A DNA stretch of 51,873 nucleotides from an uncultured Clostridia bacterium (GCA_947174975.1 CAMWLA010000001.1:1-51873); one strand, 5' to 3'; numbered from the stretch's first letter, positions 6,777 to 47,539 are shown. The notes: a model not told the origin generated them from the letters alone. Translations and numbers: made by a program.

Positions 6777-6821
6777 ATGCAATTAAAAAAGCCGCAGCCA
6801 TTTGACTGCGGCTTTTATTAT

Positions 6822-8243: not shown

Positions 8244-8262
8244 AAATTGCCTTTTATTCAAA

Positions 8263-8843: not shown

Positions 8844-8855
8844 TAAGAAAAATAA

Positions 8856-9042
8856 ACGGCGCAAGCAAAACCACGCTTTTGCGCAGCGCAACCCAATTTG
8901 CGCAAACCTACGCCTCGGCAGTTTGAATTGGCGCAACTATATGATAAGTTTGCCATTGGGGTTGCGCCAAGAAAGGCAGCGCCTTTAAAATCACGAAATT
9001 TTATCGTCGCAGAATAGACGATAAAATTTGTGAGGTAATAAT
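8856..9042 (+). promoter_or_regulatory. structured 5' leader, type 2, copy 2 (upstream of rng)
   Basis: Same architecture as copy 1. AAAGGC-AGC-GCCTTT (8972-8986). 13-bp stem 8996-9008/9017-9029 with the identical loop GCAGAATA. TCAC (8991-94) pairs with GTGA (9030-33) of the SD GTGAGG. Confidence 0.7.
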
Positions 9043-18596: not shown

Positions 18597-18617
18597 TATT
18601 TTCTCCTATTTTTATTC

Positions 18618-18730
18618 GGGAAACAGACGAGCGGCAGACGCGAAGGGCGCGGATTTGCTGACGGGCGCGTACAAAGAAGTACGCAACCAAAGCAAAACGC
18701 AAGCCCGCCAAAGTATCCCGCGAAGTATGT
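18618..18730 (+). repeat. structured intergenic repeat, type 1, copy E
   Basis: Lies between the GH28 stop and the GH105 start. P3 GCGTAC/GTACGC (18667-18684, loop AAAGAA), P2 TTTGC/GCAAA, P1 GGGC/GCCC. T-run 18730-18734. Confidence 0.75.
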
Positions 18731-18739
18731 TTTTCGAAT

Positions 18740-20278: not shown

Positions 20279-20927
20279 TGCTCGTTTCCTCTCTTTTGCG
20301 TTTTTTGACAAGGCGTAAGCCTAAGTCCTTTATTCCTATGAAAATCATATCTATAACAAGTACGATAAGCGCCCAAGATAACGGCTCGATATTAAACCTG
20401 AACATAAAGGTGTTTATGAACAGATAAACGAAGTTTACGATAACCGCGACGATGACGTAGTACAGCACGTTTGTGAAGAACGTCCAGTATGCCTTAAAGG
20501 GAAACGGAAACATGATATAATCGTTGTATTCGCGTTTGTCTGTTTCCATAAAGCGGAACAGCGGATTTACGAGCACTTCAACGACAAGCCCCAAAAACAC
20601 GCCGTCGAGAACTACGAGATCAGCCGTGGCGACGTACGGACCTAAGCCCATATTGATGAAAAAGCAGACGACACCAGCAAACCACCACTTGATAAAAAAC
20701 GCTTTTAAAAAAGTGGGTATGCGCGATAAAAAGTCGGTGCGGTAGGGGTTGAATTCCTTATCGCTTGCCTTGCCGTCACCGGTGCAGTCTGAAATTTTCA
20801 TCGAAACTTCGCCGTACTCCGACGTGTCCTCGCCTTTAAGCGCGGCGACAAGCTCGTCGACTTTATCGACTTTTAAGTCGTAAAAGTCCTCGATCGTCGT
20901 TTCCTTGATTTTCTTCTTTTTAGCCAT
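20271..20927 (-). CDS. membrane protein, unknown function (~4 TM)
   Basis: 218 aa. Charged N-terminus, then about four hydrophobic helices. No family recognised. Stop overlaps the GH28 start region. Confidence 0.65.
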   Translation of the reverse strand: MAKKKKIKETTIEDFYDLKVDKVDELVAALKGEDTSEYGEVSMKISDCTGDGKASDKEFNPYRTDFLSRIPTFLKAFFIKWWFAGVVCFFINMGLGPYVATADLVVLDGVFLGLVVEVLVNPLFRFMETDKREYNDYIMFPFPFKAYWTFFTNVLYYVIVAVIVNFVYLFINTFMFRFNIEPLSWALIVLVIDMIFIGIKDLGLRLVKKRKREETSNV

Positions 20928-21635: not shown

Positions 21636-22745
21636 TTACCTTATTGCCTTGCCGTATTCGGCAACCACTTCTTCGCCCTTTTCGTTTACCGTCATTTTAG
21701 GCAACTCGAAGAAGTGCGTCATAACGGGATCGAATCCGATTTCGATAACGTCGTCCTCTTTATAGTTGCACCATTCGGCGAACTTGGCAACGACGAGTTT
21801 CTTATCGCCGATTTTGCCGTGAACGAGAGTGTTCATTCCGAGGTTTTCGTTGTTGGTTACGGTAAGCTTAACCTTTCCGTCCCTCGTGATATTTTCGGGA
21901 CGGCAACCCATAATTACGGGCTGGCCTTCATAGTCTTTAAGCGCATCCTTCTGTGCATCGTTCAAGGGATACGAGAAAAGATCAGAAACGAAATTGCCCT
22001 TTTCGATTTTGCCCTCGAACATGTTCATAGGAGGAAGTCCTATAAAGGTTGCAACGAAGGTGTTTGCGGGCTTTTCATAAAGGTCGATAGGCTTACCTAT
22101 CTGCTGAACGCGGCCCATCGACATACACACGATTCTGTCGGCAAGCGTCAAAGCTTCCGTCTGGTCGTGAGTTACGTACATCATGGTTGCGTTGAGTTTT
22201 TTATGTAATAACATAATTTCTCTTCTCATCGAACCGCGCAGTTTTGCGTCGAGGTTGGAGAGAGGTTCGTCAAAGAGGAAAACCTTGGGGTTACGGACGA
22301 TTGCACGGCCCATTGCAACACGCTGGCGCTGACCGCCGGAAAGCTGTTTGGGCTTTTTGTTGAGCTGACTCTTCAAATCGAGAATTTCAGCCGCCGCCAT
22401 AACCTTGCGGTGAATAACTTGTTTATCCTCTTTTCTGAGGGTGAGCGAGAATGCCATATTCTCGTATATAGTCATATGACCGTACAGAGCGTAGTTCTGG
22501 AAAACCATCGAAATATCTCTGTCCTTGGGGGGAAGACGGGTACAGTCCTTACCGTCGATGGTAAGCTTACCCGCGGAAATATCTTCAAGTCCCGCGACCA
22601 TTCTGAGGGTCGTTGACTTTCCGCAACCCGAGGGGCCTACGAGTACTATGAACTCGCCGTCCTCGATATCGAGGTTAAAGTCGTATACCGCTTGAACTCC
22701 GCCGTCATAAATTTTGTCTAAATGTTCGATCTTTACGTTAGGCAT
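21636..22745 (-). CDS. ABC transporter ATP-binding protein, MsmX/UgpC/MalK type (copy 1)
   Basis: Walker A GPSGCGKST, signature LSGGQRQR, Walker B FLFDEPLSNLD, C-terminal TOBE-like regulatory domain. Confidence 0.93.
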   Translation of the reverse strand: MPNVKIEHLDKIYDGGVQAVYDFNLDIEDGEFIVLVGPSGCGKSTTLRMVAGLEDISAGKLTIDGKDCTRLPPKDRDISMVFQNYALYGHMTIYENMAFSLTLRKEDKQVIHRKVMAAAEILDLKSQLNKKPKQLSGGQRQRVAMGRAIVRNPKVFLFDEPLSNLDAKLRGSMRREIMLLHKKLNATMMYVTHDQTEALTLADRIVCMSMGRVQQIGKPIDLYEKPANTFVATFIGLPPMNMFEGKIEKGNFVSDLFSYPLNDAQKDALKDYEGQPVIMGCRPENITRDGKVKLTVTNNENLGMNTLVHGKIGDKKLVVAKFAEWCNYKEDDVIEIGFDPVMTHFFELPKMTVNEKGEEVVAEYGKAIR

Positions 22746-24070: not shown

Positions 24071-26728
24071 TTATTTTGCCGTGCCGTTTAAGATGGGTTC
24101 GAGATAAGCCCAGTAAGCTTTTGCCGTAGTCCAGCCGTCGGCATAAACGATTTGTCTGTTTTCTGCGAGTTTTGAAATTTTAGCTCCGTTGGTAACTAAC
24201 GGCTTATCAAGCAGATCTTCGATAGAAGTATAATCCACAACTACACTTTGCATATCATAATGTCCGCTCGTTCCGTAAAGAATGATGTAGTTCATTATGC
24301 TGAAGAAGCTGTCGTCTGTTCTCTTTTCGCCGGTCAGATACCTGAAGCTAAGCTGGTTGGAAGCATTGAGCACGTTCCTCTGGAAGTCTTCGGCTACGGG
24401 AAGTCCCGTGGGAACACAAGTAAACCAGTAATTGTTAGCGTCGATATCGAGGGACATACCCTTAATTATACCCTTATCAAGCGCCGTGCCGACGATCTTT
24501 GCGCCCGCCTGACCCATCTTGGAGGTAAGCTGGTTTTCGAACGACTGGTTCTTTACGCCGATAGGAAGGGTTGAACCGATGAGATAACGCGCATAGTTGT
24601 TATAGTTGAGTTTTACGTCGGCAAGGTCGCCGGTGAAGTTGGTTACACCGTCAAGTCTCTTACCCTTAAACGACTCATAGAATTTATCGGTTATGGTGGG
24701 GGTAATCGCTCCCTTGTAGTCGGAACCGGCATATTTAACGCCCTTGTAGGTGAAGTAGTTCTCGGGAACATTCTTTCCGGTTTTAGGGTCTACTTTAGTC
24801 TTAGGATTGGACTGTACTTCGTTGTACCAGAAGCCGCCCTTACCGTCTGCATTCTCAGCCATGGGGCCGAAGGTGGAAACGATTTGTCCGTCTTCCGAAT
24901 ACAGATAGTCGATGAACTGCAAAGCCGCGTCAAGCTTTTTCTCGTCCTTTGCTACCGCGCCGTTAACCGCAAGACCGGAGGTCTTGGTTGAACGCCAGCT
25001 TTCGGTAAATCTGAAATACTCGTCTTCGGAATAAGAACCGTTACCGTCAACGTCCCAAGTGGAAACGGGGGTCATTACCGGTGCGAAGTAGTAGCCCTTA
25101 GGTATAGTACCCGCTTCCGTATAGGATACGCCGTTATCCTCAACCTTTAAACCGGCAAGGGTCTGCGACTGCGAATAATCGTAAGCCATAAAGTACTCGG
25201 TTTTACCCTTATTATCGCCGATACCGAGACCGGAAGCCGTCTGATAAGCTTTCATATCCTTGTAATCGGCTATCAGATTTTCACTTCTGAGGGCATGCAT
25301 TTTCTCCATTGCCTGGTAGAAAACTTTTTCCGTACGAGCGTCTTTAAGGTCGCCGTTATTGTCGATATAGGTATACTCAAGTCTCGAAGTACCGCCACGC
25401 ACGCCGTAGAGCTGGCACGCAAGGCTTACCATAGTGGGAGTTCTGTCGTTTGTTCCCGCACGGGGTGTAATTCCGTCGATAGTCTTACCGCTACCTACAA
25501 GCACGCTTGCGTTCGTCTTTACGCAGCGGAGCATTGCTACTAATTCGTCAACGTCCCAGCATGCGTCGTAACCGGTGAAGAGATTTGCACGGTTTGTAGC
25601 TGAATAAACGCTTTCACCCTTTTCGTTCTTATAGCATACGTCGATATATGCGCGGAAAAGGTTGACAAGCTGTTCGCCCGAAGCGTTAATATTTTCTTTG
25701 AGGGCTGCGTTCATAACGTCAACGATATTACCGCTTGTGCCCGCGTAAGCCTTATTGTTGGTTATTGCTTTATAAGCAGTGGCAAGCGGGGTATTTCCGC
25801 CTAACGCGGTAACAACAGCCGCATAGTCTTTCGTAATTTTCTGGGTATTCGAGCCGTCCGCTGTCAAAGCGTCTACGGTGTAGTTATCTGAACCCATAAA
25901 TGCATCTGCATAGGTTTGGGTTTCTTTTGCACCGCCGGTCTTTATGGTACAGACTTCCGCATACTTAGCCGTAGCGCCGGTAGCGGTGTCGCTGTTCAGA
26001 AGCTTTTCAGCCCAGTCGTGACGGATAAGGCAGTATCTTTCGATATCGTCGTAACCGTCGAAATAAGGAGCAATGTAAATCGTCTGATTAGAGCCGTCGC
26101 TCGTGCTCATACCCTCTTGCAACAGCGAGAGATAGACGATGGGGTTTTCCGCAAGGAACTTCGTGAAGTTGGGCATACGGTCAAGATAGTCCGCAAGATT
26201 TAAAATCATACTGCGGTCGGTTGCCGCATAAGAAACCGCTTCGGAAAGGTCGGTGGTGAAAAGATCGGTTTTTGAATATACCGTTTCACCGTTACGGATA
26301 GTTTCGTACAACTGCTTAAGGTTGTTACCCGTATCGTCGCCCATATACTTGTCATCCCAAGTGATATTGAGGTCTTTGCCCATCTGAACCCAAGCGGGCT
26401 TTACGCTTCTGTTGGAATATTTAACTCCGTCGGGAAGAGTAATTTCATCGCCGATGCCTTGGAAAGTTGTAGACGTAAGCGTACCCTTTGAACCTATTGC
26501 TACGTTTAAGGTTACGTTTCCTCTGTTCTTGTAAACGTCGTAGTTGAGCGATACGCCGTCTTCCTTTAATACGCCGTAATGGTCGGTTCCGACGACTACG
26601 CCTTTGTTTCCGCCGCCGCCGTTATCACCGCTGTCAGGCTTACCGCCGCAAGCGGCAAAAGATAAAGCCATTGTTCCCGCCATAACAACCGATACGGAAG
26701 CTATAGCCAGCTTTTTGAATTTGTTCAT
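24071..26728 (-). CDS. very large (~885 aa) extracellular solute-binding lipoprotein of a carbohydrate ABC importer
   Basis: ORF 24071..26896 trimmed to MNKFKKLAIASVSVVMAGTMALSFAACGG at 26728 (AAGGAGAAAA RBS). Lipobox. Adjacent to two CUT1 permeases. The upstream part of the ORF is repeat copy D. Confidence 0.8.
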   Translation of the reverse strand: MNKFKKLAIASVSVVMAGTMALSFAACGGKPDSGDNGGGGNKGVVVGTDHYGVLKEDGVSLNYDVYKNRGNVTLNVAIGSKGTLTSTTFQGIGDEITLPDGVKYSNRSVKPAWVQMGKDLNITWDDKYMGDDTGNNLKQLYETIRNGETVYSKTDLFTTDLSEAVSYAATDRSMILNLADYLDRMPNFTKFLAENPIVYLSLLQEGMSTSDGSNQTIYIAPYFDGYDDIERYCLIRHDWAEKLLNSDTATGATAKYAEVCTIKTGGAKETQTYADAFMGSDNYTVDALTADGSNTQKITKDYAAVVTALGGNTPLATAYKAITNNKAYAGTSGNIVDVMNAALKENINASGEQLVNLFRAYIDVCYKNEKGESVYSATNRANLFTGYDACWDVDELVAMLRCVKTNASVLVGSGKTIDGITPRAGTNDRTPTMVSLACQLYGVRGGTSRLEYTYIDNNGDLKDARTEKVFYQAMEKMHALRSENLIADYKDMKAYQTASGLGIGDNKGKTEYFMAYDYSQSQTLAGLKVEDNGVSYTEAGTIPKGYYFAPVMTPVSTWDVDGNGSYSEDEYFRFTESWRSTKTSGLAVNGAVAKDEKKLDAALQFIDYLYSEDGQIVSTFGPMAENADGKGGFWYNEVQSNPKTKVDPKTGKNVPENYFTYKGVKYAGSDYKGAITPTITDKFYESFKGKRLDGVTNFTGDLADVKLNYNNYARYLIGSTLPIGVKNQSFENQLTSKMGQAGAKIVGTALDKGIIKGMSLDIDANNYWFTCVPTGLPVAEDFQRNVLNASNQLSFRYLTGEKRTDDSFFSIMNYIILYGTSGHYDMQSVVVDYTSIEDLLDKPLVTNGAKISKLAENRQIVYADGWTTAKAYWAYLEPILNGTAK

Positions 26729-26795
26729 TATTTTCTCCTTATTATTTATAAATAATATAATGATTAACTTAATTATTAATGCGCCTTCAAAAACT

Positions 26796-26905
26796 TTGTA
26801 GATACAAGCAAGACAAGAAGAGTGAGGAAAACTTGAAGGAATGTACAATGAAGTACATGACTGAAAGTTGCCGCAACTCGACACAGTATTGCGCAAGTAT
26901 ATACG
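26796..26905 (+). repeat. structured intergenic repeat, type 1, copy D
   Basis: Lies between the permease stop and the SBP start. P3 ATGTAC/GTACAT (loop AATGAA), P2 AACTT/AAGTT, P1 GAGT/ACTC. T-run 26909-26913. Confidence 0.8.
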
Positions 26906-26911
26906 AAGTTT

Positions 26912-27835
26912 TTATTCTTTGACGCCACCCATATTTACGCCCTTTGCAAAATACTTCTGAATGAAAGGATAAATTGCAAGGATGGGGATAACCGCACAGA
27001 CGACCATTGCATACAGTACCGAGGTTGCGGAATAAGTATAGTCGGGAGACCACTTGTTGTCGCCGGCACTCGAACCGGTTATCTGCGTGTAGGTATTTAA
27101 GAAGTCACGGATATAAACCTGAACGGGCCATGAATACTCTTGCCCTTGTTCGCCTCCGGGGATAACCTTGTATGCCCAGAAGTAGCCGTTCCAACGGGAA
27201 ATTCCGAAGAAGAGCGCTACGGTTGCAATTGTTGCCTTACTCATAGGAATATATACTTTGGTAAGTACTTGCAGCTCGGTAGCTCCGTCTATTCTTGCAG
27301 CTTCTTCGATTTCGGAAGGAACACCCTCGAAAGAGTTACGAAGAAGTATGATATTCGTCGCATTCATACCCATCGCGATAACGATAGTCCACTTAAGGTC
27401 GGTTATGCCGATAGAAGTGAAAACTTGTGACGTCTGCATATAGTTCATATACTGGGGAATAATACCCGCGGAGAACCACATCGTGAACACGAGGAAGAAG
27501 TTGAAACCGTGTCTGCCCAAAAGTCTTTTCTTGGAGAGTGCGTACGCGCCGAGTATCGAATAGCCGAGCGACCAAACCGTACCGAAGAAGGTTACGAACA
27601 GCGTGTTCGAATAGTTTATCCAGAAACGGTTATCCGTCAAAACGTGCTTGAATGCGGAGCCTTGAACGTCGACGGGCCAGAGAATTACCTTACCACCGTC
27701 CACTGCGTCGGCAGAGCTGAACGCCGCCGAAAGTGCGTAAATTAAAGGATACACACACATCAGTGAGAACAGTATGAGGATAAAGTATGCGATAATTTTG
27801 AAAATAAGTTCTGAAACTTCTGTCTTTCTTTTCAT
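26912..27835 (-). CDS. carbohydrate ABC transporter permease (LplC/CUT1 type)
   Basis: Six TM layout. EAA loop IEEAARIDGATELQVLTKVYIPMS. Confidence 0.9.
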   Translation of the reverse strand: MKRKTEVSELIFKIIAYFILILFSLMCVYPLIYALSAAFSSADAVDGGKVILWPVDVQGSAFKHVLTDNRFWINYSNTLFVTFFGTVWSLGYSILGAYALSKKRLLGRHGFNFFLVFTMWFSAGIIPQYMNYMQTSQVFTSIGITDLKWTIVIAMGMNATNIILLRNSFEGVPSEIEEAARIDGATELQVLTKVYIPMSKATIATVALFFGISRWNGYFWAYKVIPGGEQGQEYSWPVQVYIRDFLNTYTQITGSSAGDNKWSPDYTYSATSVLYAMVVCAVIPILAIYPFIQKYFAKGVNMGGVKE

Positions 27836-34261: not shown

Positions 34262-35733
34262 TAAAGAGTTACCCCCGTTTTAAATATGGCAATTTCTCTT
34301 GAACTGTTTATTTCGTTGCGCGTCTTCGAGCCGTTGGCAACATATACGACAAGATCGATAAGATTTTCAAGCTGAACGTCGAAGTTGCTTTCTAAAACTG
34401 CGCCCGCGTTGAAATCTATCCAGTTTGATTTCTTGGCTGCAAGCTCCGCATTGGTTGCAATCTTCACCGTGGGAACGAAGCCGCCGAAAGGCGTTCCTCT
34501 GCCCGTGGTGAACAGTATAAGGTGACAGCCCGAAGCCGCAAGATTTGTGACCGCGCACATATCGTTGCCGGGACCGTTCAAAAGGTTTAAGCCCTTTGCC
34601 ATTACGAAGCCGTCGTCGAACACTACGTCCTCAACGGGACCCGAACCCGACTTCTGCGTACAGCCGAGCGACTTGTCTTCCAAAGTGGTTATTCCGCCCG
34701 CCTTATTGCCGGGGGAAGGATTTTCGTAGACCGTCTGTCCGTTGCGGCGGAAGTAGTCCTTGAAATCGTTGATAAGCTTTACCGTCTTTTCAAAAACTTC
34801 CTCGTCGCGCGCCCTATTCATTAAAAGCTGTTCCGCGCCGAACATTTCGGGTACTTCGGAAAGCACGGTAGTGCCGCCCGCCGCGACGATATAGTCGCTG
34901 AATCTGCCGACGAGCGGGTTTGCGGTTATGCCCGAAAGTCCGTCCGAACCGCCGCATTTAAGTCCCACTTTGAGGCACGATATGTCGTCCTCTTCGCGCT
35001 TGTCGTGGCGGACGACTTCGACAATCTGCTTTATGAGCTGAACGCCCGCTTCGATTTCGTCGTCCTCTTCCTGGCAGACCATAAACTTAACTCTCGTTTC
35101 GTCAACCCAGCCGAGCGATTTTCTGAACTCGTCCATCTGGTTGTTCTCACAGCCGAGACCTACGACGAGCACTCCGCCCGCGTTGGGGTGGCGAACCATT
35201 TTCTGCAAAATGAGTTTCGTTCTCTCGTGGTCGTCGCCGAGTTGTGAGCAGCCGTAAGGGTGGGTATACGCGAATATACCGTCGAAGCCCTCCTCGCCGT
35301 ATCTGTTTTTATAGGTTTCGTGTATAAGCTTGACTTGACCGTTTACGCAGCCGACAGTGGGAATTATCCATATCTCGTTTCTGATGCCCACGTCGCCGTT
35401 CGCACGGTGATATACGTTGACCTTGCGGGGTTTAACCTCTTTCAATTCTGTATCGACCTTGTTATAGGTGTACTCTAAATTTTCGGAAAGGTTGGTGTGC
35501 ACGTTGTGTGTGTGAACGTGGCTTCCCGCAGAAATGGGCTTGTGTGCGCACGCGATAGGGTTGCCGTATTTGATAACCATATCGCCCTCTTTCAAGTCAA
35601 CAAGCGCAAACTTATGACCCTTTGTTATATCTTCTTTTAAAACGACGCCCTCGTGCTGTTCGCCCTTCTTCAAATCGGTGAGCGCAACCGCAACGTTATC
35701 GAGTTCGTTTATAATTATCGTTTTTTTAGCCAT
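34261..35733 (-). CDS. uxaA: altronate dehydratase
   Basis: N-terminal SAF domain (NELDNVAVALTDLKKGE). 490 aa UxaA/GarD family. Overlaps the uxaC start by 1 nt. Confidence 0.93.
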   Translation of the reverse strand: MAKKTIIINELDNVAVALTDLKKGEQHEGVVLKEDITKGHKFALVDLKEGDMVIKYGNPIACAHKPISAGSHVHTHNVHTNLSENLEYTYNKVDTELKEVKPRKVNVYHRANGDVGIRNEIWIIPTVGCVNGQVKLIHETYKNRYGEEGFDGIFAYTHPYGCSQLGDDHERTKLILQKMVRHPNAGGVLVVGLGCENNQMDEFRKSLGWVDETRVKFMVCQEEDDEIEAGVQLIKQIVEVVRHDKREEDDISCLKVGLKCGGSDGLSGITANPLVGRFSDYIVAAGGTTVLSEVPEMFGAEQLLMNRARDEEVFEKTVKLINDFKDYFRRNGQTVYENPSPGNKAGGITTLEDKSLGCTQKSGSGPVEDVVFDDGFVMAKGLNLLNGPGNDMCAVTNLAASGCHLILFTTGRGTPFGGFVPTVKIATNAELAAKKSNWIDFNAGAVLESNFDVQLENLIDLVVYVANGSKTRNEINSSREIAIFKTGVTL

Positions 35734-37176: not shown

Positions 37177-38286
37177 TCAGTGCCTCTTAATATCGTTTTC
37201 AATTATTTCTTCCGTCTCCGCGTCATAGACGTATGCCGCAACCTGGGGAATACGGAATGTGAAATCTGCGCCCATCTCGGGGGTGTGGTGAGGGTTGACT
37301 TTGAGGATAACGTTTACCTTGTTATCGCCCTCGCCTACGGTCGCGTATACGTTGGTGGTATCGCCCAAAAGCTCGGTAAGCTCTACCTTTGATTTGATTT
37401 CGAAATCGTTCTTGGTCTTGGTAAGCTTGATAGCTTCGGGTCTGAACGCGAACACCACTTTCTTGCCCTCGACTGCCTTTACGTCCTTTACAAGCGGCGC
37501 TATATCCAAAGCCAAACCGTGGCCGACAAACTTGCCGTCCTTTACTTCACCGCGGAAGAAGTTCATAGGAGGTTCGCCTATGAAGCCCGCAACGAAGAGG
37601 TTCTTCGGATAGAAATACAGCTCGTACGGAGTGCCGATCTGCTGAACGTATCCGCCCGATTTCATAACGACTATTCTGTCCGACATGGTCATAGCTTCGG
37701 TCTGGTCGTGGGTTACGTAAATGGTGGTAGCGCCGACCGAACGGTGAATCTGCTTGATTTCCGAACGCATAGTTACACGCTGCTTTGCGTCGAGGTTGGA
37801 AAGCGGTTCGTCCATAAGGAAGATATTAACCTTTCTTATCAGCGCACGGCCTACCGCAACACGCTGACACTGTCCGCCCGACAGTGCGCGGGGGAATCTT
37901 TCAAGGTAGTCGGTAAGTCCTAAAATTTTAGCCGTTGCCTTAACCTTTTCGTCGATAACTTCCGCGTCGATACCTTCAAGCGTAAGTCCGAAAGCAAGGT
38001 TTTCGTAAACGGTAAGGTGGGGATAGAGCGCGTAGGACTGGAATACCATTGCTATGCCCCTATCACGCGACGACATCTGATTTGCAAGCTTGCCGTCGAT
38101 GTAGAACTCGCCCGCGGTTATGTCTTCGAGACCCGCTATCATTCTGAGCGTAGTCGATTTACCGCAACCCGAATCACCTACAAGACAGATGAACTCGCCG
38201 TCGTTGATTTCCATATTGAAATCGTGCACGGCGTGATATCCGTTAGGATAAACTTTGTTAACGTCAATGAATTTAAGTTGTGCCAT
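37177..38286 (-). CDS. ABC transporter ATP-binding protein, MsmX/UgpC/MalK type (copy 2)
   Basis: Walker A GDSGCGKST, signature LSGGQCQR, Walker B FLMDEPLSNLD, TOBE-like C-terminus. 2 nt upstream of uxaB. Confidence 0.92.
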   Translation of the reverse strand: MAQLKFIDVNKVYPNGYHAVHDFNMEINDGEFICLVGDSGCGKSTTLRMIAGLEDITAGEFYIDGKLANQMSSRDRGIAMVFQSYALYPHLTVYENLAFGLTLEGIDAEVIDEKVKATAKILGLTDYLERFPRALSGGQCQRVAVGRALIRKVNIFLMDEPLSNLDAKQRVTMRSEIKQIHRSVGATTIYVTHDQTEAMTMSDRIVVMKSGGYVQQIGTPYELYFYPKNLFVAGFIGEPPMNFFRGEVKDGKFVGHGLALDIAPLVKDVKAVEGKKVVFAFRPEAIKLTKTKNDFEIKSKVELTELLGDTTNVYATVGEGDNKVNVILKVNPHHTPEMGADFTFRIPQVAAYVYDAETEEIIENDIKRH

Positions 38287-38336
38287 AATATATTTTCCCT
38301 CTCAAAAAAATTTCTTATATAATTGTTAGCTAAACT

Positions 38337-38447
38337 GTGGAGAAACGAGCAAGACAAGGCGAGTGCGCAAACCGCGAGGAAGTTTACATAGAGGTAAATG
38401 ACCGAAGCGGTGCGTAAACTCAACGCCGTATTGCGACGTTTATACGC
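38337..38447 (+). repeat. structured intergenic repeat, type 1, copy B
   Basis: Lies between the kduI stop and the msmX-like copy 2 start. P3 GTTTAC/GTAAAT (38382-38399, loop ATAGAG), P2 ACCGC/GCGGT (38371-75 / 38407-11), P1 GAGT/ACTC (38361-64 / 38418-21). Confidence 0.8.
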
Positions 38448-38453
38448 AGTTTG

Positions 38454-39323
38454 TTATTTCAAGTCGCGAGTTTTAATGTTATCCATATCGTCATAAGTTT
38501 GGTTCTCACCGCACATACCCCAAATGAATGTGTAGTTGTGCGTGCCTACTCCGCTGTGGATAGACCAGCTGGGCGAGATGACCGCTTGTTCGTTGTGCAT
38601 AATTATGTGGCGCGTTTCCTGGGGAGTGCCCATAAGGTGAATTACCGCCTCTTCTTCGGGAAGCTCGAAGTACATATATACTTCCATTCTTCTCTCGTGG
38701 GTGTGGCTGGGAAGAGTGTTCCAAGCACTGCCTTCGGCAAGCTCAGTCATGCCCATTGCAAGCTGACAGCTTTCGCATACGTCGCCGATTATGAACTGGT
38801 TAATCGTTCTCTTGTTGATACCCTCCAAGGAGCCCAAATGCCTTTGAACGCAATATCTTGCGTCTGCGGGGGCGGGCTTACCCTCTACGGGTTTCATAAT
38901 TTTAACCGTGGGATAGGTCTTGTGCGCAGGGCAAGAATTGATATAGAATTTCGCGGGGTTTTTACCGTCAACTGAAGAAAACTCGATTTCCTTCGTGCCC
39001 ATTCCTATATAGATACCCTCTTTATGACCTATCTCGTAAACCTTGCCGTCAAGCGTGATTTTACCCGCTCCGCCGATATTGATTACGCCCATTTCACGGC
39101 GTTCAAGGAAGAACGCGGTAGCCAGCTCTTTAAAAGTGCCGAGGCTTAATTTCTTTTTAACGGGCATTGCGCCGCCCGCGATTATTCTGTCCTGGTGGGA
39201 ATACGTTAAAAGTATTTCGTCCTCTTCGAACAGTTTGTTAATGAGATATTTTTCTCTCAACTCTTTCGTGTCGTAATGCTTGGAATCATCGGGATGATTA
39301 GCATATCTAATATCGAACTTCAA
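38454..39323 (-). CDS. kduI: 5-dehydro-4-deoxy-D-glucuronate isomerase
   Basis: MKFDIRYANHPDDSKHYDTKELREKYLI is the KduI N-terminus. Cupin His cluster PSHTHERRMEVYMYF. Confidence 0.92.
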   Translation of the reverse strand: MKFDIRYANHPDDSKHYDTKELREKYLINKLFEEDEILLTYSHQDRIIAGGAMPVKKKLSLGTFKELATAFFLERREMGVINIGGAGKITLDGKVYEIGHKEGIYIGMGTKEIEFSSVDGKNPAKFYINSCPAHKTYPTVKIMKPVEGKPAPADARYCVQRHLGSLEGINKRTINQFIIGDVCESCQLAMGMTELAEGSAWNTLPSHTHERRMEVYMYFELPEEEAVIHLMGTPQETRHIIMHNEQAVISPSWSIHSGVGTHNYTFIWGMCGENQTYDDMDNIKTRDLK

Positions 39324-40185: not shown

Positions 40186-41217
40186 TTATCTCTGAACTCT
40201 ACCGGAGCCATCTCCGCCTGCAAGAGCTTCAACTTCCTTACGGGAAACAAGGTTGAAGTCGCCGGGGATAGTGTGCTTCAATGCGGAAGCCGCTACGCCG
40301 AATTCCAAAGCAGCCTTGAAATCTTTTCCGTCAAGGAAGCCCGTAATAACGCCGCCCGCGAACGAGTCGCCGCCGCCTACGCGGTCAACGATGGGGCTTA
40401 TACGGTATTCTTTGGAGTGATAGAATTCCTTGGTAGCCGCGTTATATATGCAAGCCGACCAACCGTTATCAGATGCGGAATGGCTTACGCGGAGCGAAGA
40501 AATCGCAAACTTGAAGCCCAAATCTTTGCACATTCTCTCGAATATATCCTTGTAGCCCGCAAGCTCCAAATCGCCTTGGGTTACGTCCGTCTTTCCGGGC
40601 TTGTATCCTAATACGAGGTCAGCGTCCTCTTCGTTGCCGATACATACGTCAACGTATTTCATAAGCTTGGTCATGACCGACTTTGCCTTTTCGCTTGACC
40701 AAAGCTTTTTACGGAAGTTGAGGTCAACCGATACGGTTACGCCGTGTTTTTTAGCGGCTTTCAAAGCTTCTTCGGTGAGCACCGCAGCCGAATCCGAAAC
40801 GGCGGGTGTAATGCCCGTAAAGTGGAACCAGTCTGCATCCTTGAAGATTTCGTCGAAGTCAAAATCTTTCTTGGTAGCCGTAGTAATCGAAGCGTGCGCT
40901 CTGTCGTAAACGACTTTCGAGGGTCTCATAGCAGCACCAGTTTCAAGGAAGTATATGCCCAGTCTTTCGCCGCATCTTGCGATATGGCAAGTTTCAACGC
41001 CGTACTTTCTTAAAGCCGCGACAGCGCATTCGCCGATTTCGTTATCGGGAACTGCCGTTACGAATTCAGCCTTGTGGCCGTAGTTGGCGCACGATACCGC
41101 TACGTTAGCTTCGCCGCCGCCGTAGTTGATATCAAACTCGTCGGCTTGAATAAACTTTTCGTTGTTGGGGGTTGAAAGGCGGAGCATTATCTCGCCCATA
41201 GTTACGATTTTTTTCAT
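40186..41217 (-). CDS. kdgK: 2-dehydro-3-deoxygluconokinase
   Basis: PfkB family. MKKIVTMGEIMLRLSTP, GGGEANVAVS, C-terminal VDRVGGGDSFAGG. Confidence 0.9.
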   Translation of the reverse strand: MKKIVTMGEIMLRLSTPNNEKFIQADEFDINYGGGEANVAVSCANYGHKAEFVTAVPDNEIGECAVAALRKYGVETCHIARCGERLGIYFLETGAAMRPSKVVYDRAHASITTATKKDFDFDEIFKDADWFHFTGITPAVSDSAAVLTEEALKAAKKHGVTVSVDLNFRKKLWSSEKAKSVMTKLMKYVDVCIGNEEDADLVLGYKPGKTDVTQGDLELAGYKDIFERMCKDLGFKFAISSLRVSHSASDNGWSACIYNAATKEFYHSKEYRISPIVDRVGGGDSFAGGVITGFLDGKDFKAALEFGVAASALKHTIPGDFNLVSRKEVEALAGGDGSGRVQR

Positions 41218-41244
41218 AAAACTTTTTCTCCTTATAATTGCTAA

Positions 41245-41358
41245 CCGCGTATATACTTCGCAATACTGCGTTGCGCTACATTTTGCTCAGTCATTTACCA
41301 TCTTTGTAAACTCCTATCGCAAAGCCTCGCGCTCCTTGTCTTGCTCGTATCTCCACGG
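41245..41358 (-). repeat. structured intergenic repeat, type 1, copy F (inverted)
   Basis: The reverse complement aligns to copy B over its full length (GTGGAGATACGAGCAAGACAAGG...GTATTGCGAAGTATATACGCGG). P3 GTTTAC/GTAAAT, P2 TTTGC/GCAAA, P1 GCGC/GCGC. Lies between the eda stop and the kdgK start. Confidence 0.8.
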
Positions 41359-41377
41359 TTGTTTAATTATTTATTTT

Positions 41378-42361
41378 TTATTTTTTGAGTACGAGGTGTA
41401 CGGCAAAGCCGCCGAACTCGTGTTCTAAATAAGCCACGTTCATAACGCCGTCGGCGTTGAATTTTTGCGAGCCTTCCATTACCTTGTATCCGCGCTTTTC
41501 AAGCTGATACAGTGCACGCGTTACGGAATTTGTTGCAATTGCGATATGTCCGTGCGTGCCGTGGAAAGGCTTTTTCATCATTTCCATATAGGTTGATGCG
41601 AATACCGAGCTGTTGCCCACTTTCTTTTCAAAGCCGAACGCCGCTTCGAATTCGTCCGCAACGTTTTCCGCTTCTTTCTCGTTAGCACAGTTAAGACCGA
41701 CGTGAACCATAGTGAAGCCGAGCATCTTATCCACAGCCGTACGGCAGAGCTTCGTTATACCCGCCCAGTCCTCGGCGTCTAAGAGTTTTGCGGGAACTAT
41801 CCAGCTTCCGCCGCAGCAGACTATCTTGTTAAAGCCGAGATAGGTGTTGAGGTTTTCTTCCGTAACCCCGCCCGTAGGCATAAAGCGCATTGTGGAATAG
41901 GGTGCGCAGACCGACTTGATGTAGGGAAGTCCGCCCGCTTGCTCCGCGGGGAAGAATTTTACGAAATCGAGTCCTAATTCAAGCGCTTGTTCTATTTCAC
42001 TTGCGGAAGAAACTCCGGGGGCGAAAGGCTCGCCCTTGTCAAGGCAGTGCTTGACGACTTTGGGGTTAAGTCCGGGGGCTACGCAGAATTTTGCGCCCGC
42101 CTTGTATGCCGCGTCGGCTTGTTCGCAAGTAAGCACGGTGCCCGCGCCCACAAGCATATCGGGATATGCCTTGGTCATACGGCGGATAACATCGTCCGCG
42201 CCCTTTGCCCTGAAAGTTACCTCGGCACAGTTGATACCGCCGTCGCGGAGAGCTTTGGCAAGCTTTTCCGCATTTTCAACCTTGTCAAGCTTGATTACGG
42301 GAACGATGCCGATATTCGAAAGCTCGTCCACGAGGGAATTGATTTTTTCTTTTACAGTCAT
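41378..42361 (-). CDS. eda: KDPG/KHG aldolase fused to a C-terminal VOC (glyoxalase-like) domain
   Basis: Residues ~1-210 match Eda (GINCAEVTFR, GAGTVL, KFFPA, MPTGGV). Residues ~215-327 (MVHVGLNC...GHIAIATNSVTRALYQLEKRGYKV...FAVHLV) look like a VOC fold. Confidence 0.8.
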   Translation of the reverse strand: MTVKEKINSLVDELSNIGIVPVIKLDKVENAEKLAKALRDGGINCAEVTFRAKGADDVIRRMTKAYPDMLVGAGTVLTCEQADAAYKAGAKFCVAPGLNPKVVKHCLDKGEPFAPGVSSASEIEQALELGLDFVKFFPAEQAGGLPYIKSVCAPYSTMRFMPTGGVTEENLNTYLGFNKIVCCGGSWIVPAKLLDAEDWAGITKLCRTAVDKMLGFTMVHVGLNCANEKEAENVADEFEAAFGFEKKVGNSSVFASTYMEMMKKPFHGTHGHIAIATNSVTRALYQLEKRGYKVMEGSQKFNADGVMNVAYLEHEFGGFAVHLVLKK

Positions 42362-43978: not shown

Positions 43979-45139
43979 TCAAACTTCAAAAAGCTCTTTT
44001 AATTCTTCTTCGTCTATCTTCGAACCGATTACGCACAGTCTGCCGGTATAAGCGGGACTGCCCTTGCGGATATCGATTTCGCCGGGGATATAGTCGAAGT
44101 GAAGCCAGCCGTCCGTGCCGGCAACGATACCCTTTGCGCGTAAGATAGTACCGAACCTAACCGCGTCCGAAAGCGCGGAGAGGTGAGCTTTGAGCTCGGC
44201 TTCGGTGAACTTTTTGCTCGTTTCAACGCCCCAGCTTGTGAACACTTCGTCCGCATGGTGATGGTGATGATCGTGGTGGTCATGGTCATGATGGTGGTGA
44301 CCCTCGTGCTCATCCTCGTCGTGATGATGGTGACCGTGGCAACACTCATGTTCGTCTTCGTCGTGGTGGTGATGTCCGTGACAGCATTCGTGCCCCTCTT
44401 CGTCATGATGGTGATGATGGTGGCACTCACCGTCTTCATGGTCGTGATGGTGGTGACCGTGGCAGCACTCGTGCTCGTCATCGTTGTCGTGGTGATGGTG
44501 GTGGTGATGCTCTTCACCCAGCTTTTTAAGCTCGCTTTCAAGCGTTTCGGAATGCTCCATAGCAGAAAGAATTTCCTTGCCGTCAAGCTCCAACCAAGGG
44601 GTTGTGACTATGGTTGCGTTTGCGTTGTGTTCGCGCACAAGCTTAACCGCGGTTGCAAGCTTGTCCGCGCTTGTTACGTCTGCATGGCTGAACACTATGC
44701 ACGCGGCGGTTTCAATCTGGTCGTTGAAAAACTCGCCGAAGTTCTTCATATACATTTTGCACTTGCCCGCGTCGACAACCGCAGTGAACGTATTGATTTT
44801 GCAGTCGGCAAGGTGCGCGCTTTCTACCGCGCGGATGACGTCGGAAAGCTTGCCCACGCCCGACGGTTCGATTAAAATGCGGTCGGGGTGATACTCGGCG
44901 TAAACCTTTTTCAAAGCTTCGGCAAAGTCGCCGACGAGCGAACAGCAGATACAGCCCGAATTGAGCTCGTTAATCTTAATGCCCGCGTCCTGCAAAAAGC
45001 CGCCGTCAATTCCGATTTCACCGAACTCGTTTTCGATTAAAACGAGCTTTTCGCCCGCGTAAGCTTCCTTTATAAGTTTTTTGATAAGCGTAGTTTTGCC
45101 CGCGCCGAGAAAACCCGAAAAAATATCGATTTTAGTCAT
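43979..45139 (-). CDS. COG0523 (CobW/YciC/ZigA-type) metallochaperone GTPase with giant His/Cys-rich insert
   Basis: GFLGAGKTTLIKKL Walker A, ENEFGEIGID, metal motif GCICCS, CobW_C-like end. 85-aa insert that is almost entirely H/D/E/C. Confidence 0.88.
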   Translation of the reverse strand: MTKIDIFSGFLGAGKTTLIKKLIKEAYAGEKLVLIENEFGEIGIDGGFLQDAGIKINELNSGCICCSLVGDFAEALKKVYAEYHPDRILIEPSGVGKLSDVIRAVESAHLADCKINTFTAVVDAGKCKMYMKNFGEFFNDQIETAACIVFSHADVTSADKLATAVKLVREHNANATIVTTPWLELDGKEILSAMEHSETLESELKKLGEEHHHHHHHDNDDEHECCHGHHHHDHEDGECHHHHHHDEEGHECCHGHHHHDEDEHECCHGHHHHDEDEHEGHHHHDHDHHDHHHHHADEVFTSWGVETSKKFTEAELKAHLSALSDAVRFGTILRAKGIVAGTDGWLHFDYIPGEIDIRKGSPAYTGRLCVIGSKIDEEELKELFEV

Positions 45140-45215
45140 TACATTACCTCTTTACTTTTTAATTAAATTATAAACAGAAAATCGCAATATCAACCATTGG
45201 TTTAACTATCGGTTT

Positions 45216-45320
45216 CTATGAACAAGCAGTACAACGCGAGTGCGCAAACCGCAAGGGCGCTTACAATGAAGTAAGTAACCGCAGCGGTGCGCAAACTCAA
45301 CACAGTAATGCGAAGTTCAG
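45216..45320 (+). repeat. structured intergenic repeat, type 1, copy C
   Basis: Lies between the terminator of the DUF2188 gene and the COG0523 promoter region. P3 GCTTAC/GTAAGT (loop AATGAA), P2 ACCGC/GCGGT, P1 GAGT/ACTC. Confidence 0.75.
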
Positions 45321-45335
45321 GGGAAGCGACAAACT

Positions 45336-45359
45336 AAAAGCTCGCACAAGCGAGCTTTT
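45336..45359. terminator. terminator after the DUF2188 gene
   Basis: Stem AAAAGCTCGC/GCGAGCTTTT, loop ACAA. Confidence 0.75.
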
Positions 45360-45370: not shown

Positions 45371-46126
45371 TTAAACTTCGCGAACGCCGCCGTCCTCTTT
45401 ATGTACGAGGATCTTTTTCTTGCCCGACACCTTTCTTACGTAGTCGATAGCTTCCTTCTGGGTGAAGAAAAGCTTTAACGCCTTTTCACCGCCGTCAAGT
45501 CTTACTTCCCACTTCTTGTCATAGCGTTTGGAAATGTGGTATATCTTTACGTCGTCTTCGTTTCCCGCACCGGCTTTCGCGGTTGCCGTTTTTGCTGCGG
45601 GCTTAGCTGCAGTTTTAGGTTGTTCTTTCTTTTCTGCTGTTGCAGCAGTCTTTGTTTCCTCATTTTTAGCCTTTGCCGTAGTCGACTTTGCCGCGGTTGT
45701 TTTCGCAGCAGCCTTGGGCTCTTCTTTCTTCGCGGTGGTTTTTGCCGCGGTTGTCTTTGTCGAAGCCGACTTCGTTTCAGTTGATTTCGTTGCAGTCGTC
45801 TTTTTTGCGGTTGTGGTTTTCTTCGCCGCGGGTTTCTTTACCGGCTCTTCCTCTACGAGCACGGGCTCGGGTTCTGCTACGGGCTCCGCTACGGGTTCGG
45901 GCTCTGCCGCGACCTCTTCGGTAACCTTTTCCTCTTTGACTTCCTCCGCCTTAACTTCTTCGGCGGGCATAGGCACGGGCTCTGCTGAGTTCTCTTTCGA
46001 TTTATCGCCCTTCTTAACGCAAGCAACGATAATTATTGCCATAAGCAAGCATGCAATTCCGAGAATGATTGCAATCCACGCCCAGTTGGGTATAAGAAAC
46101 ATACTTTCTTTAAACCAGTCTAACAT
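45371..46126 (-). CDS. membrane-anchored protein with K/A/T-rich linker and DUF2188-like C-terminal domain
   Basis: N-terminal TM WAWIAIILGIACLLMAIIIVACV. Histone-H1-like AAKKTTTAKKTTATK repeats. C-terminal YHISKRYDKKWEVRLDGGEKALKLFFTQKEAIDYVRKV...ILVHKEDGGV resembles DUF2188. Confidence 0.7.
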   Translation of the reverse strand: MLDWFKESMFLIPNWAWIAIILGIACLLMAIIIVACVKKGDKSKENSAEPVPMPAEEVKAEEVKEEKVTEEVAAEPEPVAEPVAEPEPVLVEEEPVKKPAAKKTTTAKKTTATKSTETKSASTKTTAAKTTAKKEEPKAAAKTTAAKSTTAKAKNEETKTAATAEKKEQPKTAAKPAAKTATAKAGAGNEDDVKIYHISKRYDKKWEVRLDGGEKALKLFFTQKEAIDYVRKVSGKKKILVHKEDGGVREV

Positions 46127-46153: not shown

Positions 46154-47539
46154 TCAGTTTCTCGTTTTGGTACGGCTGACCGTTCCGCCGGTCAACACTA
46201 TCATTTTAACTGCCGAAGGGGAGAAATCGTCCGCTTCAACGTTCAGCGCCTTGTCCAAAGTTCCGCGTGCAAGCACCTTGATATAGGTTGCTTTTTTATT
46301 AACGGAAGGTACGCGCTTTTTAATTTCTTCGATAGTAACGTCGTCGCCCGCATTGAAATATCTGCTAAGCGTATCGATATTGACAATATCCTTTTTGGTT
46401 TTATCGGAATATCTTTCACTCTCTTGAATAAAGGTTTCGGCAACCTCGTCGGCGATTTCCTCGTCCGCTTCGACTACCGTTATGCTTTCAACGACTTCGG
46501 GATACTGTACTTCTTCCGCAGTCTCTTCTACAACCTCTTCTTCAACCTCGGCGGGTTGCTCATCGGCAACTTCTTCAACGACCTCTTCGATAGGTTCTTC
46601 GACGATTTCTTCTACAACTTCTTCGGCAACTTCTTCCGCCGCCTCTTCAACGGTAGCGACTTCGGAATAGTCGGCTTCCGCAGTAAGTTGTTCATACCTC
46701 TCTTCGGAAATTTCGATTAAGCCCTCTTCCGCGCCTTGAGCGTTTTCTTCAAATTTCAGAAGTTTGACAAGCTTACGCTCGATAAGCGGTTCAAGCTCCT
46801 CGTAAGGGTATCTTGCGACGTAATCTTCCGTCGGGGTGTCGCCCGCCGCAAGTCCGTTTTCCGCCATTAACGCGGAGATAAGGTCCTTCGAATATTTGCA
46901 GCGTCTGTCGTTTTTGATTTTGTAAAGCGAGGGAACGCTTGCGTTATTTGCAACCGACGAAACGTCGTTGATTTTGTATTTGGTGCCGTCATATGCCTTG
47001 GGGTCGAGCGCCAGATACAGACCGAGCGTTTTGCCGCGCATAGAAATTTTCGCAAGCAGTTTTCTGCCGAGCTTGAAGGTTTCGTATCTCCAGCTTGTAC
47101 GCGTTTTTACTTTATAGCGCAAAAGCTCGTTTTTGATTTCGCCGTAATAGCTTTTAATTTTGTCGTCCGACTGAATAAGCTTTGCCGTAAAGCTGCGGTT
47201 GTACCTTACACGTATAAACACCTTGCCGTCGGCTTTAACCGCAACCGGTCTCTCCGCTACGGGTTTAACCTCGGCGGGCGCATTCTGCGCAACTTCTTCC
47301 TTCGGTTCTTCAGCTATAGGTTGAACTTCGGCCTCGGGTTGCGCCGCGATAGGCTGCTCAACAGTCTGAACCTCGGGTTCCGTCCGAACTTCTACCTCGG
47401 GCTGAGCTACGGGTTCGGGCTGCACATCTTCTACGGGTTGAACAACTTCTTCCTTAATGTCAACCGCTTCGGGGACGACTTCAGTCTTAACTTCCGCCGT
47501 CTTATTTTTCTTGCGTTTAAACAATTTGAAAAAACACAT
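46154..47539 (-). CDS. low-complexity protein with C-terminal uL15-like domain
   Basis: The last ~75 aa (IVNIDTLSRYFNAGDDVTIEEIKK...IKVLARGTLDKALNVEADDFSPSAVKMIVLTGGT) align by eye to the C-terminal half of bacterial L15 (VNL..L..F..G..VT.E......KILG.G.L.K.L.V.A..FS.SA......GG). Two acidic E/V/P repeat tracts. Confidence 0.7.
   Translation of the reverse strand: MCFFKLFKRKKNKTAEVKTEVVPEAVDIKEEVVQPVEDVQPEPVAQPEVEVRTEPEVQTVEQPIAAQPEAEVQPIAEEPKEEVAQNAPAEVKPVAERPVAVKADGKVFIRVRYNRSFTAKLIQSDDKIKSYYGEIKNELLRYKVKTRTSWRYETFKLGRKLLAKISMRGKTLGLYLALDPKAYDGTKYKINDVSSVANNASVPSLYKIKNDRRCKYSKDLISALMAENGLAAGDTPTEDYVARYPYEELEPLIERKLVKLLKFEENAQGAEEGLIEISEERYEQLTAEADYSEVATVEEAAEEVAEEVVEEIVEEPIEEVVEEVADEQPAEVEEEVVEETAEEVQYPEVVESITVVEADEEIADEVAETFIQESERYSDKTKKDIVNIDTLSRYFNAGDDVTIEEIKKRVPSVNKKATYIKVLARGTLDKALNVEADDFSPSAVKMIVLTGGTVSRTKTRN

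Follow-up and report, generated by a model that had tools for sequence, protein, structure and literature searches.

What kind of sequence occurs six times between genes in a 51,873-nt stretch of DNA from an uncultured Clostridia bacterium (GCA_947174975.1, CAMWLA010000001.1:1-51873; hereafter the window)? The original prediction described an intergenic element of about 110 nt, one copy of which lies at 38337 to 38447 (copy B), and proposed that it was either a structured RNA or a repeat resembling the REP elements. We examined the element in the window, in species-representative genomes, and in metagenome contigs. It is a new repeat family of the REP/MITE (miniature inverted-repeat transposable element) kind rather than a proven RNA gene. 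Its hairpin is under selection on one strand, and nearly all copies that abut a stop codon do so with the same polarity.

A covarying hairpin and its selected strand

A covariance model was built from a MAFFT alignment of the six window copies and their RNAalifold fold, and the window was searched with filters off. The search returned exactly six copies, at the places where they had been predicted, with scores of 103 to 141 bits and E values from 2e-33 to 7.5e-24. The next-best match (E = 0.066) was merely the reverse strand of one of these copies. A degenerate search pattern found five of the six copies and nothing else in the window, and had no match in 100 shuffles of the window. The fold energy of every copy was 5 to 8 standard deviations below that of its dinucleotide shuffles. 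RNAalifold assigned 37 pairs to the six copies, 23 of them changed on both sides, which confirmed the nested helices with compensatory changes that had first drawn attention to the element. The extent of about 110 nt given at that time was too short: the hairpin is a rod of about 125 nt, with two further covarying helices outside the GCAAGAC/GTATTGC pairing. The copies are strictly intergenic, as had been stated, yet the base of the hairpin lies 0 to 5 nt from a stop codon in four of them (copies A, E, D, and B).

To describe the fold over the family, covariation statistics were calculated for 131 copies from other genomes, in an alignment fitted to the covariance model. Standard pairs occupied 91.8% of the cells, compared with 69.9% in shuffles, and both-sided changes were present in 33 of the 37 pairs. 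The covariation score was 0.519, compared with 0.160 in shuffles (0 of 500 reached the observed score) and at most 0.101 when the pairing partners were slid by 1 to 3 columns. The same helices were obtained independently by MAFFT and RNAalifold from the six window copies. Therefore, the structure is under selection, as originally argued.

The unit consists of 10 or 11 short helices split by conserved purine-rich internal loops, and its most conserved nucleotides are unpaired ones: AGA, GCAAGACAAGG, GAGG, a 5'-GA/GA-3' internal loop, the TAC-ANNGAM-GTA apex, GACC, AAC..GTATTGCGA, and TATA. The conserved blocks recognized in the window (GCAAGAC, the apical TAC/GTA with its ANNGAM loop, and GTATTGCG) had been identified correctly and were kept in the 131 further copies. 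About 40 loop nucleotides were invariant across genera and in a Deferribacterota genome, while the stems drifted. The outermost 8-bp stem was the least conserved part; about 50% of the copies had the consensus AAAC.GC./.GC.GTTT there, and several unrelated subfamilies existed besides. Past the outer stem, the information content was zero on both sides.

The strand as written in the original prediction is called here the element strand. With RNA parameters, its fold was the more stable one in 125 of 134 copies (mean of -49.1 kcal/mol versus -41.6 kcal/mol for the complement); with DNA parameters, this was so in 131 of 134. A hand tally from the pair table, made for the cleanly aligned helices, gave 88 G.U or U.G pairs on this strand, compared with 38 A.C or C.A pairs. 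The pair at columns 78 and 160 was GU in 86 copies, GC in 41, and AU in 4, with no other combination. On the complement, the wobbles turn into A.C mismatches and the G.A loops into pyrimidine-pyrimidine oppositions. Because of the better folding, the excess of G.U pairs, and the fixed G-Y pair (Y, pyrimidine), we conclude that the fold is selected on one particular strand, the element strand. No promoter was detected on it: the information content was zero over the 60 nt 5' of the hairpin in 117 copies, and promoter-like matches in the window showed no alignment with the copies.

Distribution, polarity, and turnover

Degenerate-pattern scans covered species-representative genomes (at least 115 loci) and metagenome contigs (at least 120 loci), the genome loci being pieces of 8 to 15 kb around the matches; individual loci are designated by L and a number. 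The covariance model confirmed at least 152 further copies in at least 72 species-level genomes. The metagenome loci held at least about 160 copies. A hidden Markov model (HMM) built from confirmed copies recovered all of them, and the total reached at least 336. The hosts were uncultured gut Clostridia named Borkfalkia, Coproplasma, Scatosoma, Christensenella, or Christensenellaceae. Among the matches listed, the only one confirmed outside the Clostridia was in a metagenome-assembled genome (MAG) of Seleniivibrio woodruffii (Deferribacterota; L077:2868-3223, NZ_JAJUIS010000004.1). There, a tandem triplet with all conserved loop motifs lies between a small open reading frame (ORF) and a cyclophilin gene on a 262-kb contig, the neighbors on which are ordinary genes, including those for cytochrome c, cyclophilin, and ABC proteins. 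This triplet suggests horizontal spread. Another copy, at L038 (CANRJO010000044.1), came from an "Alphaproteobacteria" bin. It was nearly identical, outer stem and flank included, to the copy at L007 (CANRKK010000006.1), which belongs to a Clostridia bin of the same rabbit-gut sample (Lapin-021); the L038 contig is therefore probably mis-binned and not evidence for the element in Alphaproteobacteria. Seven pattern matches in IMG/VR and one at a Treponema locus (L052) yielded no covariance-model hit and were discarded as chance matches.

A search of Rfam 15 gave no match at gathering thresholds for the whole window and none at E values up to 10 for copy B with its flanks. There was no blastn match to the element in plasmid and phage sequences or in E. 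coli (5,426 genomes, 20,395 records), and no published account of the hairpin family was found in literature searches. Exact matches to the window proteins were found in one assembly only, GCA_029071305.1. The repeat appears to be specific to Christensenellales-type gut Clostridia, a clade from which no such element seems to have been described.

The position of the copies was then determined relative to genes called by a crude ORF-based caller, whose calls were verified with the Pfam annotation of the window. Of the first 158 copies, 90 had the element-strand 3' end no more than 40 nt away from the stop codon of an opposite-strand gene, and only 4 to 8 showed the mirror arrangement. An HMM-based recount gave 81 copies versus 3 mirrored ones in genome loci and 94 versus 0 in independent metagenome loci, or 175 versus 3 combined; in ten copies, both ends abutted stop codons. 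The distance from the last base of the outer stem to the stop codon had a median of 1.5 nt and an interquartile range of -2 to +10, with frequent overlap. TAA accounted for 86% of the abutted stops, compared with 66% of all stops in the same loci. At convergent gene pairs, a stop codon was still touched by the element 3' end. The remaining copies were mostly in tandem arrays, at contig ends, or behind a canonical terminator (copy C of the window, L048, and L109). In the window, five copies obeyed the polarity rule, and copy F was mirrored. The orientation bias of about 98% exceeded the gene-strand bias (76% dominant strand, 11% minor strand), so that orientation follows the gene and not merely replication, two directions that are not rigorously separable in 8-kb loci. 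Since the element 3' end meets the stop codon of an opposite-strand gene, what appears in the mRNA of that upstream gene is normally the complement of the selected strand.

The abutted genes had no common function, and many are highly expressed (tsf, fusA, rplA, pyrG, guaB, obg, argG, and an aminoacyl-tRNA synthetase gene). Four of the window copies had been linked to a pectin locus; because housekeeping genes are abutted elsewhere (fusA, rplA, pyrG, guaB, obg, and argG, in addition to tsf in the window), this context is incidental, and a pectin-specific regulator was ruled out. The hairpin was followed by a run of four or more T residues in about 10% of the copies, and about half of the outer stems ended in GTTT. 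A terminator scan of the window flagged no element as a whole; canonical terminators occurred separately.

Two explanations for the polarity were rejected. The first, suggested by four pairs of filled and empty sites, was that the element brings a Shine-Dalgarno tail to the downstream gene. When the next gene was distant, however, Shine-Dalgarno-like motifs were present in 39 of 202 cases, compared with 46 of 202 on the control strand, and the tail at L235 (see below) was unique to that copy. The second was that the element supplies stop codons in the gene sense; the gene-sense strand, with frames checked by eye, was not richer in stops.

In comparisons of orthologous sites, the element behaved as a dispersed repeat that turns over slowly, its copies being gained, lost, and replaced. 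In L235, compared with L002, whose flanks are near-identical, exactly 142 nt was inserted 2 nt after a TAA stop codon (GATAAAA-142 nt-TAAATCC). The insert consisted of the hairpin and a unique 20-nt tail on the side distal to the stop codon. No target-site duplication was present at this pair, and the other filled and empty pairs showed replacement instead of duplication. In L033, compared with L170, the element overlaps the gene end, replaces the final codons, and supplies the TAA. In three further comparisons (L114 with L035, L090 with L038, and L016 with L103 and position 35733 of the window), the element and a short extra tail part genes that overlap or are closely coupled where the element is missing. 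At 35726 to 35733 of the window, two uronate-pathway genes overlap (ATGGCTAA); the orthologous junction in L016 is split by the element and a new Shine-Dalgarno region. In two pairs (L010/L076, with flanks 96% identical, and L049/L094, with flanks about 90% identical), the "empty" allele has a short hairpin at the same spot, which may be either the original insertion target or the remnant of an element that lost its interior. These two pairs also hint that the outer stem is an inverted target duplication or a native terminator stem, an idea that L114/L035 and L235/L002 do not support. One site carries different subfamilies in L086 and L078, the flanks being 90 to 98% identical and the elements 69%. 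A tandem array differs by one unit (two versus three) between L047 and L198, with flanks 97 to 99% identical, and arrays of three to four units occur.

Contig ends inside copies were common. Positions 1 to 45003 of the window are identical to a contig of GCA_029071305.1 in reverse (JAIEAR010000233.1), and the end of that contig falls within copy A; the repeat therefore breaks assembly. The nearest relative of a copy was in the same genome for 37 of 96 copies, compared with 1.8 expected, and identity within genomes was only about 76%. In about 100 records of close-relative pairs, both members had the element in all but four; the sites orthologous to that of copy B, for example, are occupied in L023, L190, and L227 as well. 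Near-universal sharing and low identity within genomes together indicate that the family is old and that movement is rare. No conserved terminal inverted repeats were found, the outermost stem being the least conserved part, and no defined target motif was found. Neither a transposase, an integrase or recombinase, nor a reverse transcriptase was seen in the 52-kb window and about 1.7 Mb of loci, where the neighbors are ordinary genes. A tblastn search of about 0.9 Mb of loci for an IS200-like gene found no match to an approximate TnpA query. A plain MITE, with terminal inverted repeats, target-site duplications, and near-identical copies, was the case that the original prediction had set against its own proposal, and it does not describe this family. 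The REP-like alternative that it had offered fits: the element is multicopy and dispersed, varies in presence at orthologous sites, forms tandem arrays, and breaks assemblies.

Known repeats and possible readers of the fold

In functional terms, the element belongs to the class of REP/REPIN, ERIC, and Correia repeats, but it lacks the conserved ends and the target duplication of MITEs, the conserved REP-bearing ends of REPINs, the sequence homology of ERIC, and the R boxes of attC sites. Its architecture is inverted relative to REP/REPIN, ERIC, and Correia repeats, with a conserved interior and variable ends; moreover, its polarity is nearly absolute, and the strand that folds is the antisense one. 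Like REPs and REPINs, it is noncoding, multicopy, extragenic, clustered, persistent, and mostly vertically inherited, and it has a long hairpin, in single-stranded DNA or RNA, with compensatory stem changes. The described RAYT systems are, as far as is known, mainly proteobacterial, whereas the hosts of the new element are Clostridia, and no RAYT was found in the loci examined (with the approximate IS200 TnpA query). In a REPIN, two inverted REP palindromes form conserved ends around a variable spacer, and REP doublets are randomly distributed in extragenic space (PMC3116915). In contrast, the ends of the new element are its most variable part and the interior is conserved, neither half has a palindrome of its own, and placement at stop codons is strictly polar.

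ERIC (also called IRU) and Correia (NEMIS) repeats share with the new element a size of 100 to 160 bp, an imperfect palindrome, a location in transcribed intergenic regions, and a stem formed when the 5' end pairs with the 3' end. Being MITEs, Correia elements have conserved terminal inverted repeats and a TA duplication, both of which are absent here; ERIC has no sequence homology to the new element (the E. coli blastn search was negative), and the copies of the new element are far more divergent than those of either family and covary extensively. Palindrome-associated elements (PATEs) derived from IS200/IS605 also have neither terminal inverted repeats nor target-site duplications, are recognized through a hairpin on one strand, and insert in a strand-specific manner beside a short target. 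The strand predicted for them is the lagging-strand template, and hence gene-sense, whereas the new element folds on the opposite strand; no TnpA was found with the approximate query, nor was a defined target tetranucleotide found for the element. The bcr4-6 repeats of B. cereus, EFAR of E. faecalis, and pneumococcal BOX and RUP are dispersed intergenic repeats of Gram-positive bacteria, some with compensatory changes or near stop codons and cotranscribed, but their sequences and host clade are unrelated to those of the new element. We know of no described family that combines an orientation rule of about 98% with a fold selected on the antisense strand. To our knowledge, a strict rule of position and orientation has not been reported for REP, ERIC, BOX, or Correia repeats.

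We favor, with a probability of roughly one-half, the reading that the element is a nonautonomous hairpin repeat whose folded single strand, most plausibly DNA, is read by a putative trans-acting enzyme. Copies would be gained, lost, and replaced slowly, and would land at or overlapping a stop codon with invariant polarity and a ragged far end. Since the template (antisense) strand of the gene is the one on which pairing, the G-Y pair, and the G.A loops are selected, and a conserved promoter is lacking, the factor most likely recognizes this strand as folded single-stranded DNA during mobilization or recombination. Possible precedents are the HUH/Y1 transposases, which read REP or IS200 hairpins, and IntI, which reads the bottom strands of attC sites. 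The one-sided tail at L235 might likewise be compared with the putative mobile unit of REPINs, for which an asymmetric intermediate of a hairpin and a one-sided tail has been proposed (PMC3116915). Once resident, the complement of a copy would be cotranscribed as a very stable hairpin (mean of -41.6 kcal/mol) in the 3' untranslated region (UTR) or between cistrons, and the orientation bias would probably be enforced by the effect of this hairpin on the upstream mRNA or the terminating ribosome. The effect of ERIC on the stability of flanking mRNA segments depends on orientation and on the proximity of the ribosome (PMC2229807). As a conjecture, the opposite orientation would place purine loops resembling Shine-Dalgarno sequences (AAGGAG and GAGGGAG) behind the terminating ribosome, whereas the observed one places pyrimidine loops there.

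Several observations weigh against this reading. No transposase, recombinase, or reverse transcriptase was present near any copy in the window and the loci examined, and comparison of the copies and of filled and empty pairs revealed no target-site duplication, conserved termini, or defined target motif. The identity of about 76% within genomes and the near-universal sharing between close relatives mean that movement is rare, and the long-term upkeep of the fold in resident copies may require selection at the level of the host. The folded strand is neither the lagging-strand template nor the nontemplate strand, which are the strands expected to be exposed as single-stranded DNA. Finally, a bias of 98%, beyond the 76% gene-strand majority, points to an effect at the level of expression, for which single-stranded DNA alone offers no explanation.

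An effect on expression is central to another explanation, which we consider unlikely on the whole, namely, that the element acts in cis in the mRNA, in the gene sense. Located at the stop codon, a hairpin in the 3' UTR or between cistrons would stop 3' exonucleases, cause attenuation of transcription, or be unfolded by the ribosome as it terminates, and could thereby tune the stability of the upstream mRNA or the translation of the downstream gene, as described for REP and ERIC. The polarity tied to the direction of gene expression (175 versus 3), the median of 1.5 nt between hairpin base and stop codon, the frequent position behind highly expressed genes (tsf, fusA, rplA, pyrG, and guaB), and the retention of orthologous sites in nearly all close relatives all agree with it. 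Even the gene-sense strand has a mean fold energy of -41.6 kcal/mol, and ERIC provides a precedent for an orientation-dependent effect on mRNA stability that involves the ribosome (PMC2229807). However, the details of the fold run the other way: in the gene sense, 86 of the 131 copies have an A.C mismatch in place of the conserved G-Y pair, the wobbles amount to 38 G.U versus 88 A.C, and the conserved tandem G.A loop becomes a pyrimidine mismatch. The need for some 40 invariant loop nucleotides is also left unexplained. In addition, the genome has canonical terminators, and copies downstream of one (copy C, L048, and L109) would be poorly transcribed.

The same details of the fold could instead be accounted for by structured RNAs made from the element strand, antisense to the neighboring genes, although we regard this as rather improbable. 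Such RNAs might be small RNAs that share a terminator with the convergent gene, or transcripts of a small number of "master" copies, with purine-rich loops that form kissing contacts with the complementary pyrimidine loops of the many copies borne by mRNAs. The fold, the G.U pairs, the tandem G.A, and the conserved loops are all on this strand; the loops are kept across genera and in one other phylum, as for an interaction surface; and about half of the copies end in GTTT(T) beside the stop codon, like the arm of a bidirectional terminator. However, most copies have no T-run after the hairpin, there is no conserved -10 or -35 box and no conserved sequence 5' of the hairpin, and promoter-like matches in the window are out of register with the copies. 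The copy number, about 100 or more per genome when extrapolated from copy density, the arrays, and the filled and empty sites are unlike those of small RNA genes. The structured RNA of the original prediction, taken as an RNA gene, was thus weakened, since no promoter is conserved and the selected strand is antisense in about 98% of the stop-abutting copies.

Quite improbable, in our view, is a DNA-level site of the host, such as has been suggested for some REP/BIME clusters: a host protein, for example gyrase or a nucleoid, replication, or repair protein, would bind a cruciform or hairpin located where strongly transcribed genes end. The location at the 3' ends of highly expressed majority-strand genes and the long retention at orthologous sites agree with such a site, and the conserved loop nucleotides are compatible with protein contacts. 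Yet selection on a duplex or cruciform would treat the two strands alike, whereas the wobbles differ between them; there is no evident candidate for the binding protein; and insertions, tandem amplification, and spread to another phylum are left unexplained. An attC-like site of an integron-like system, or a site of a structure-specific tyrosine or serine recombinase whose substrate would be the folded bottom strand and whose unit would be a gene with its hairpin, is very improbable: the element does lie directly 3' of an ORF or overlap its stop codon, folds better on the strand complementary to the ORF, has a size in the attC range, and conserves structure over sequence, but the R''/R' boxes (RYYYAAC ... 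GTTRRRY) are absent, AAAC and GTTT (as AAAC.GC./.GC.GTTT) stand at the outer and not the inner stem end in about half of the copies while other subfamilies differ, conservation is in the interior and not at the ends, and the copies lie 3 to 12 kb apart between syntenic core genes for housekeeping and catabolism, with neither cassette arrays nor an integrase nearby in the window and the loci examined.

The window copies and the meaning of the family

The ORFs that flank the window copies are real genes according to Pfam, all on the minus strand: EF-Ts, GH28, GH88, an ABC permease, a MalK-like ATPase, KduI, KdgK, KDPG aldolase, and CobW. Copy A (1 to 125, plus strand) is truncated by the window start and scored 103 bits, with a fold of -44.1 kcal/mol (z score, -5.1); the stop codon of tsf (EF-Ts, with an EF_TS Pfam match; minus strand), at 115 to 117, abuts the 3' end of its element strand. 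Copy E (18607 to 18748, plus strand; 107.9 bits; -53.4 kcal/mol) is the most divergent. It lies between a GH88 gene (17463 to 18596, minus strand) and a GH28 gene (18740 to 20311, minus strand), whose stop codon abuts the element 3' end. For copy D (26784 to 26920, plus strand), the score was 133.3 bits and the fold -40.6 kcal/mol (z score, -8.4). The hairpin base is abutted by the TAA (26912 to 26914) of the ABC permease gene (26912 to 27835, minus strand), and an 885-amino-acid ORF (24071 to 26728, minus strand) lies on the other side.

Copy B (38325 to 38461, plus strand; hairpin at about 38331 to 38452) had the highest score, 140.6 bits, and folds at -49.4 kcal/mol, compared with -35.2 kcal/mol for its complement. 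Its neighbors are the KduI gene (38454 to 39323, minus strand; stop codon at 38454 to 38456) and the MalK-like ATPase gene (37177 to 38286, minus strand). The latter has a paralog in the same sugar-acid locus, 15.5 kb apart (21636 to 22745), and the two MalK-type ABC ATPase genes are 72 to 80% identical in DNA over several stretches. Copy F (41233 to 41368, minus strand; 119.9 bits) folds at -41.3 kcal/mol, compared with -24.8 kcal/mol for its complement. This is one of the few mirrored copies, with the element strand in the gene sense. The KDPG aldolase gene (41378 to 42361, minus strand) has its stop codon next to the element 5' end, and the KdgK gene (40186 to 41217, minus strand) follows the copy.

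Copy C (45202 to 45338, plus strand; 126.3 bits) is located upstream of the CobW-like gene (43979 to 45139, minus strand) and, in the gene sense, just past the canonical terminator of the ORF at 45371 to 46126 (minus strand), with the stop context TAA..AAAAGCTCGCTTGTGCGAGCTTTT. This intrinsic terminator (45336 to 45359, minus strand; a 10-bp stem with 5 GC pairs and a T-run) stands between the stop codon and copy C. Since it precedes the copy, the element is not itself the terminator at that site. The CobW-like GTPase gene contains imperfect 39/42-nt repeats (GTCATGGTGATGGTG...) at 44279 to 44497, probably a His-rich stretch as in CobW proteins of the zinc-chaperone type. Repeats with a 12-nt period (TTCTTC.AC..C) are found at 45854 to 45931, 46511 to 46645, and 47264 to 47421, in the ORF next to copy C and in another at 46154 to 47539 (minus strand), and would encode low-complexity acidic or lysine-rich repeat proteins.

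Elsewhere in the window, a gene for a leucine-rich-repeat protein of the BspA type (6822 to 8261) has internal repeats of 33 to 46 nt, and a hairpin resembling a bidirectional terminator lies alongside at 6786 to 6824. A second, unrelated dispersed repeat of about 170 to 180 nt, with several hairpins and a minimum free energy of about -66 kcal/mol, is present at 4930 to 5110 and 8855 to 9030 (both plus strand). Its two window copies are 77 to 82% identical, and each has a TATAAT-like box and ends at the start codon of a plus-strand gene (for a HIT-domain protein and RNase E/G, respectively). Copies or fragments were found in at least 20 Christensenellales loci (for example, L073:3432-3600, L021:2524-2664, L023:5163-5331, and L002:3956-4094), and no Rfam match was obtained for it. 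It could be a portable promoter or 5'-leader element, or another kind of structured repeat.

The hairpin family has practical consequences: MAG assemblies break at it, its copies overlap stop codons and in some cases provide them, it can be used as a lineage marker, and the covariance model could annotate it. It is also a caution that covariation alone is no proof of an RNA gene. Tentatively, and on the unlikely side, the element may be a new kind of polar genetic element that homes to gene 3' ends, its rod-shaped fold on the antisense strand being read by a putative enzyme, as part of a new mobilization or recombination system of Firmicutes dependent on single strands, or a source of antisense "master" transcripts that pair loop to loop with mRNA copies. 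Either would explain why about 40 unpaired nucleotides are invariant while the stems drift, and the master transcripts, if real, would form a genome-wide, repeat-based posttranscriptional network over a hundred-odd mRNA-borne copies. The Christensenellales are abundant gut bacteria, mostly uncultured, whose noncoding biology is little explored. For these bacteria, the family is a natural collection of several hundred versions of a single fold, which covaries very strongly and obeys a strict rule of position and orientation. A fold that is read as single-stranded DNA would imply a new mobilizing enzyme, and one that is read as RNA would make this a large new regulatory family.

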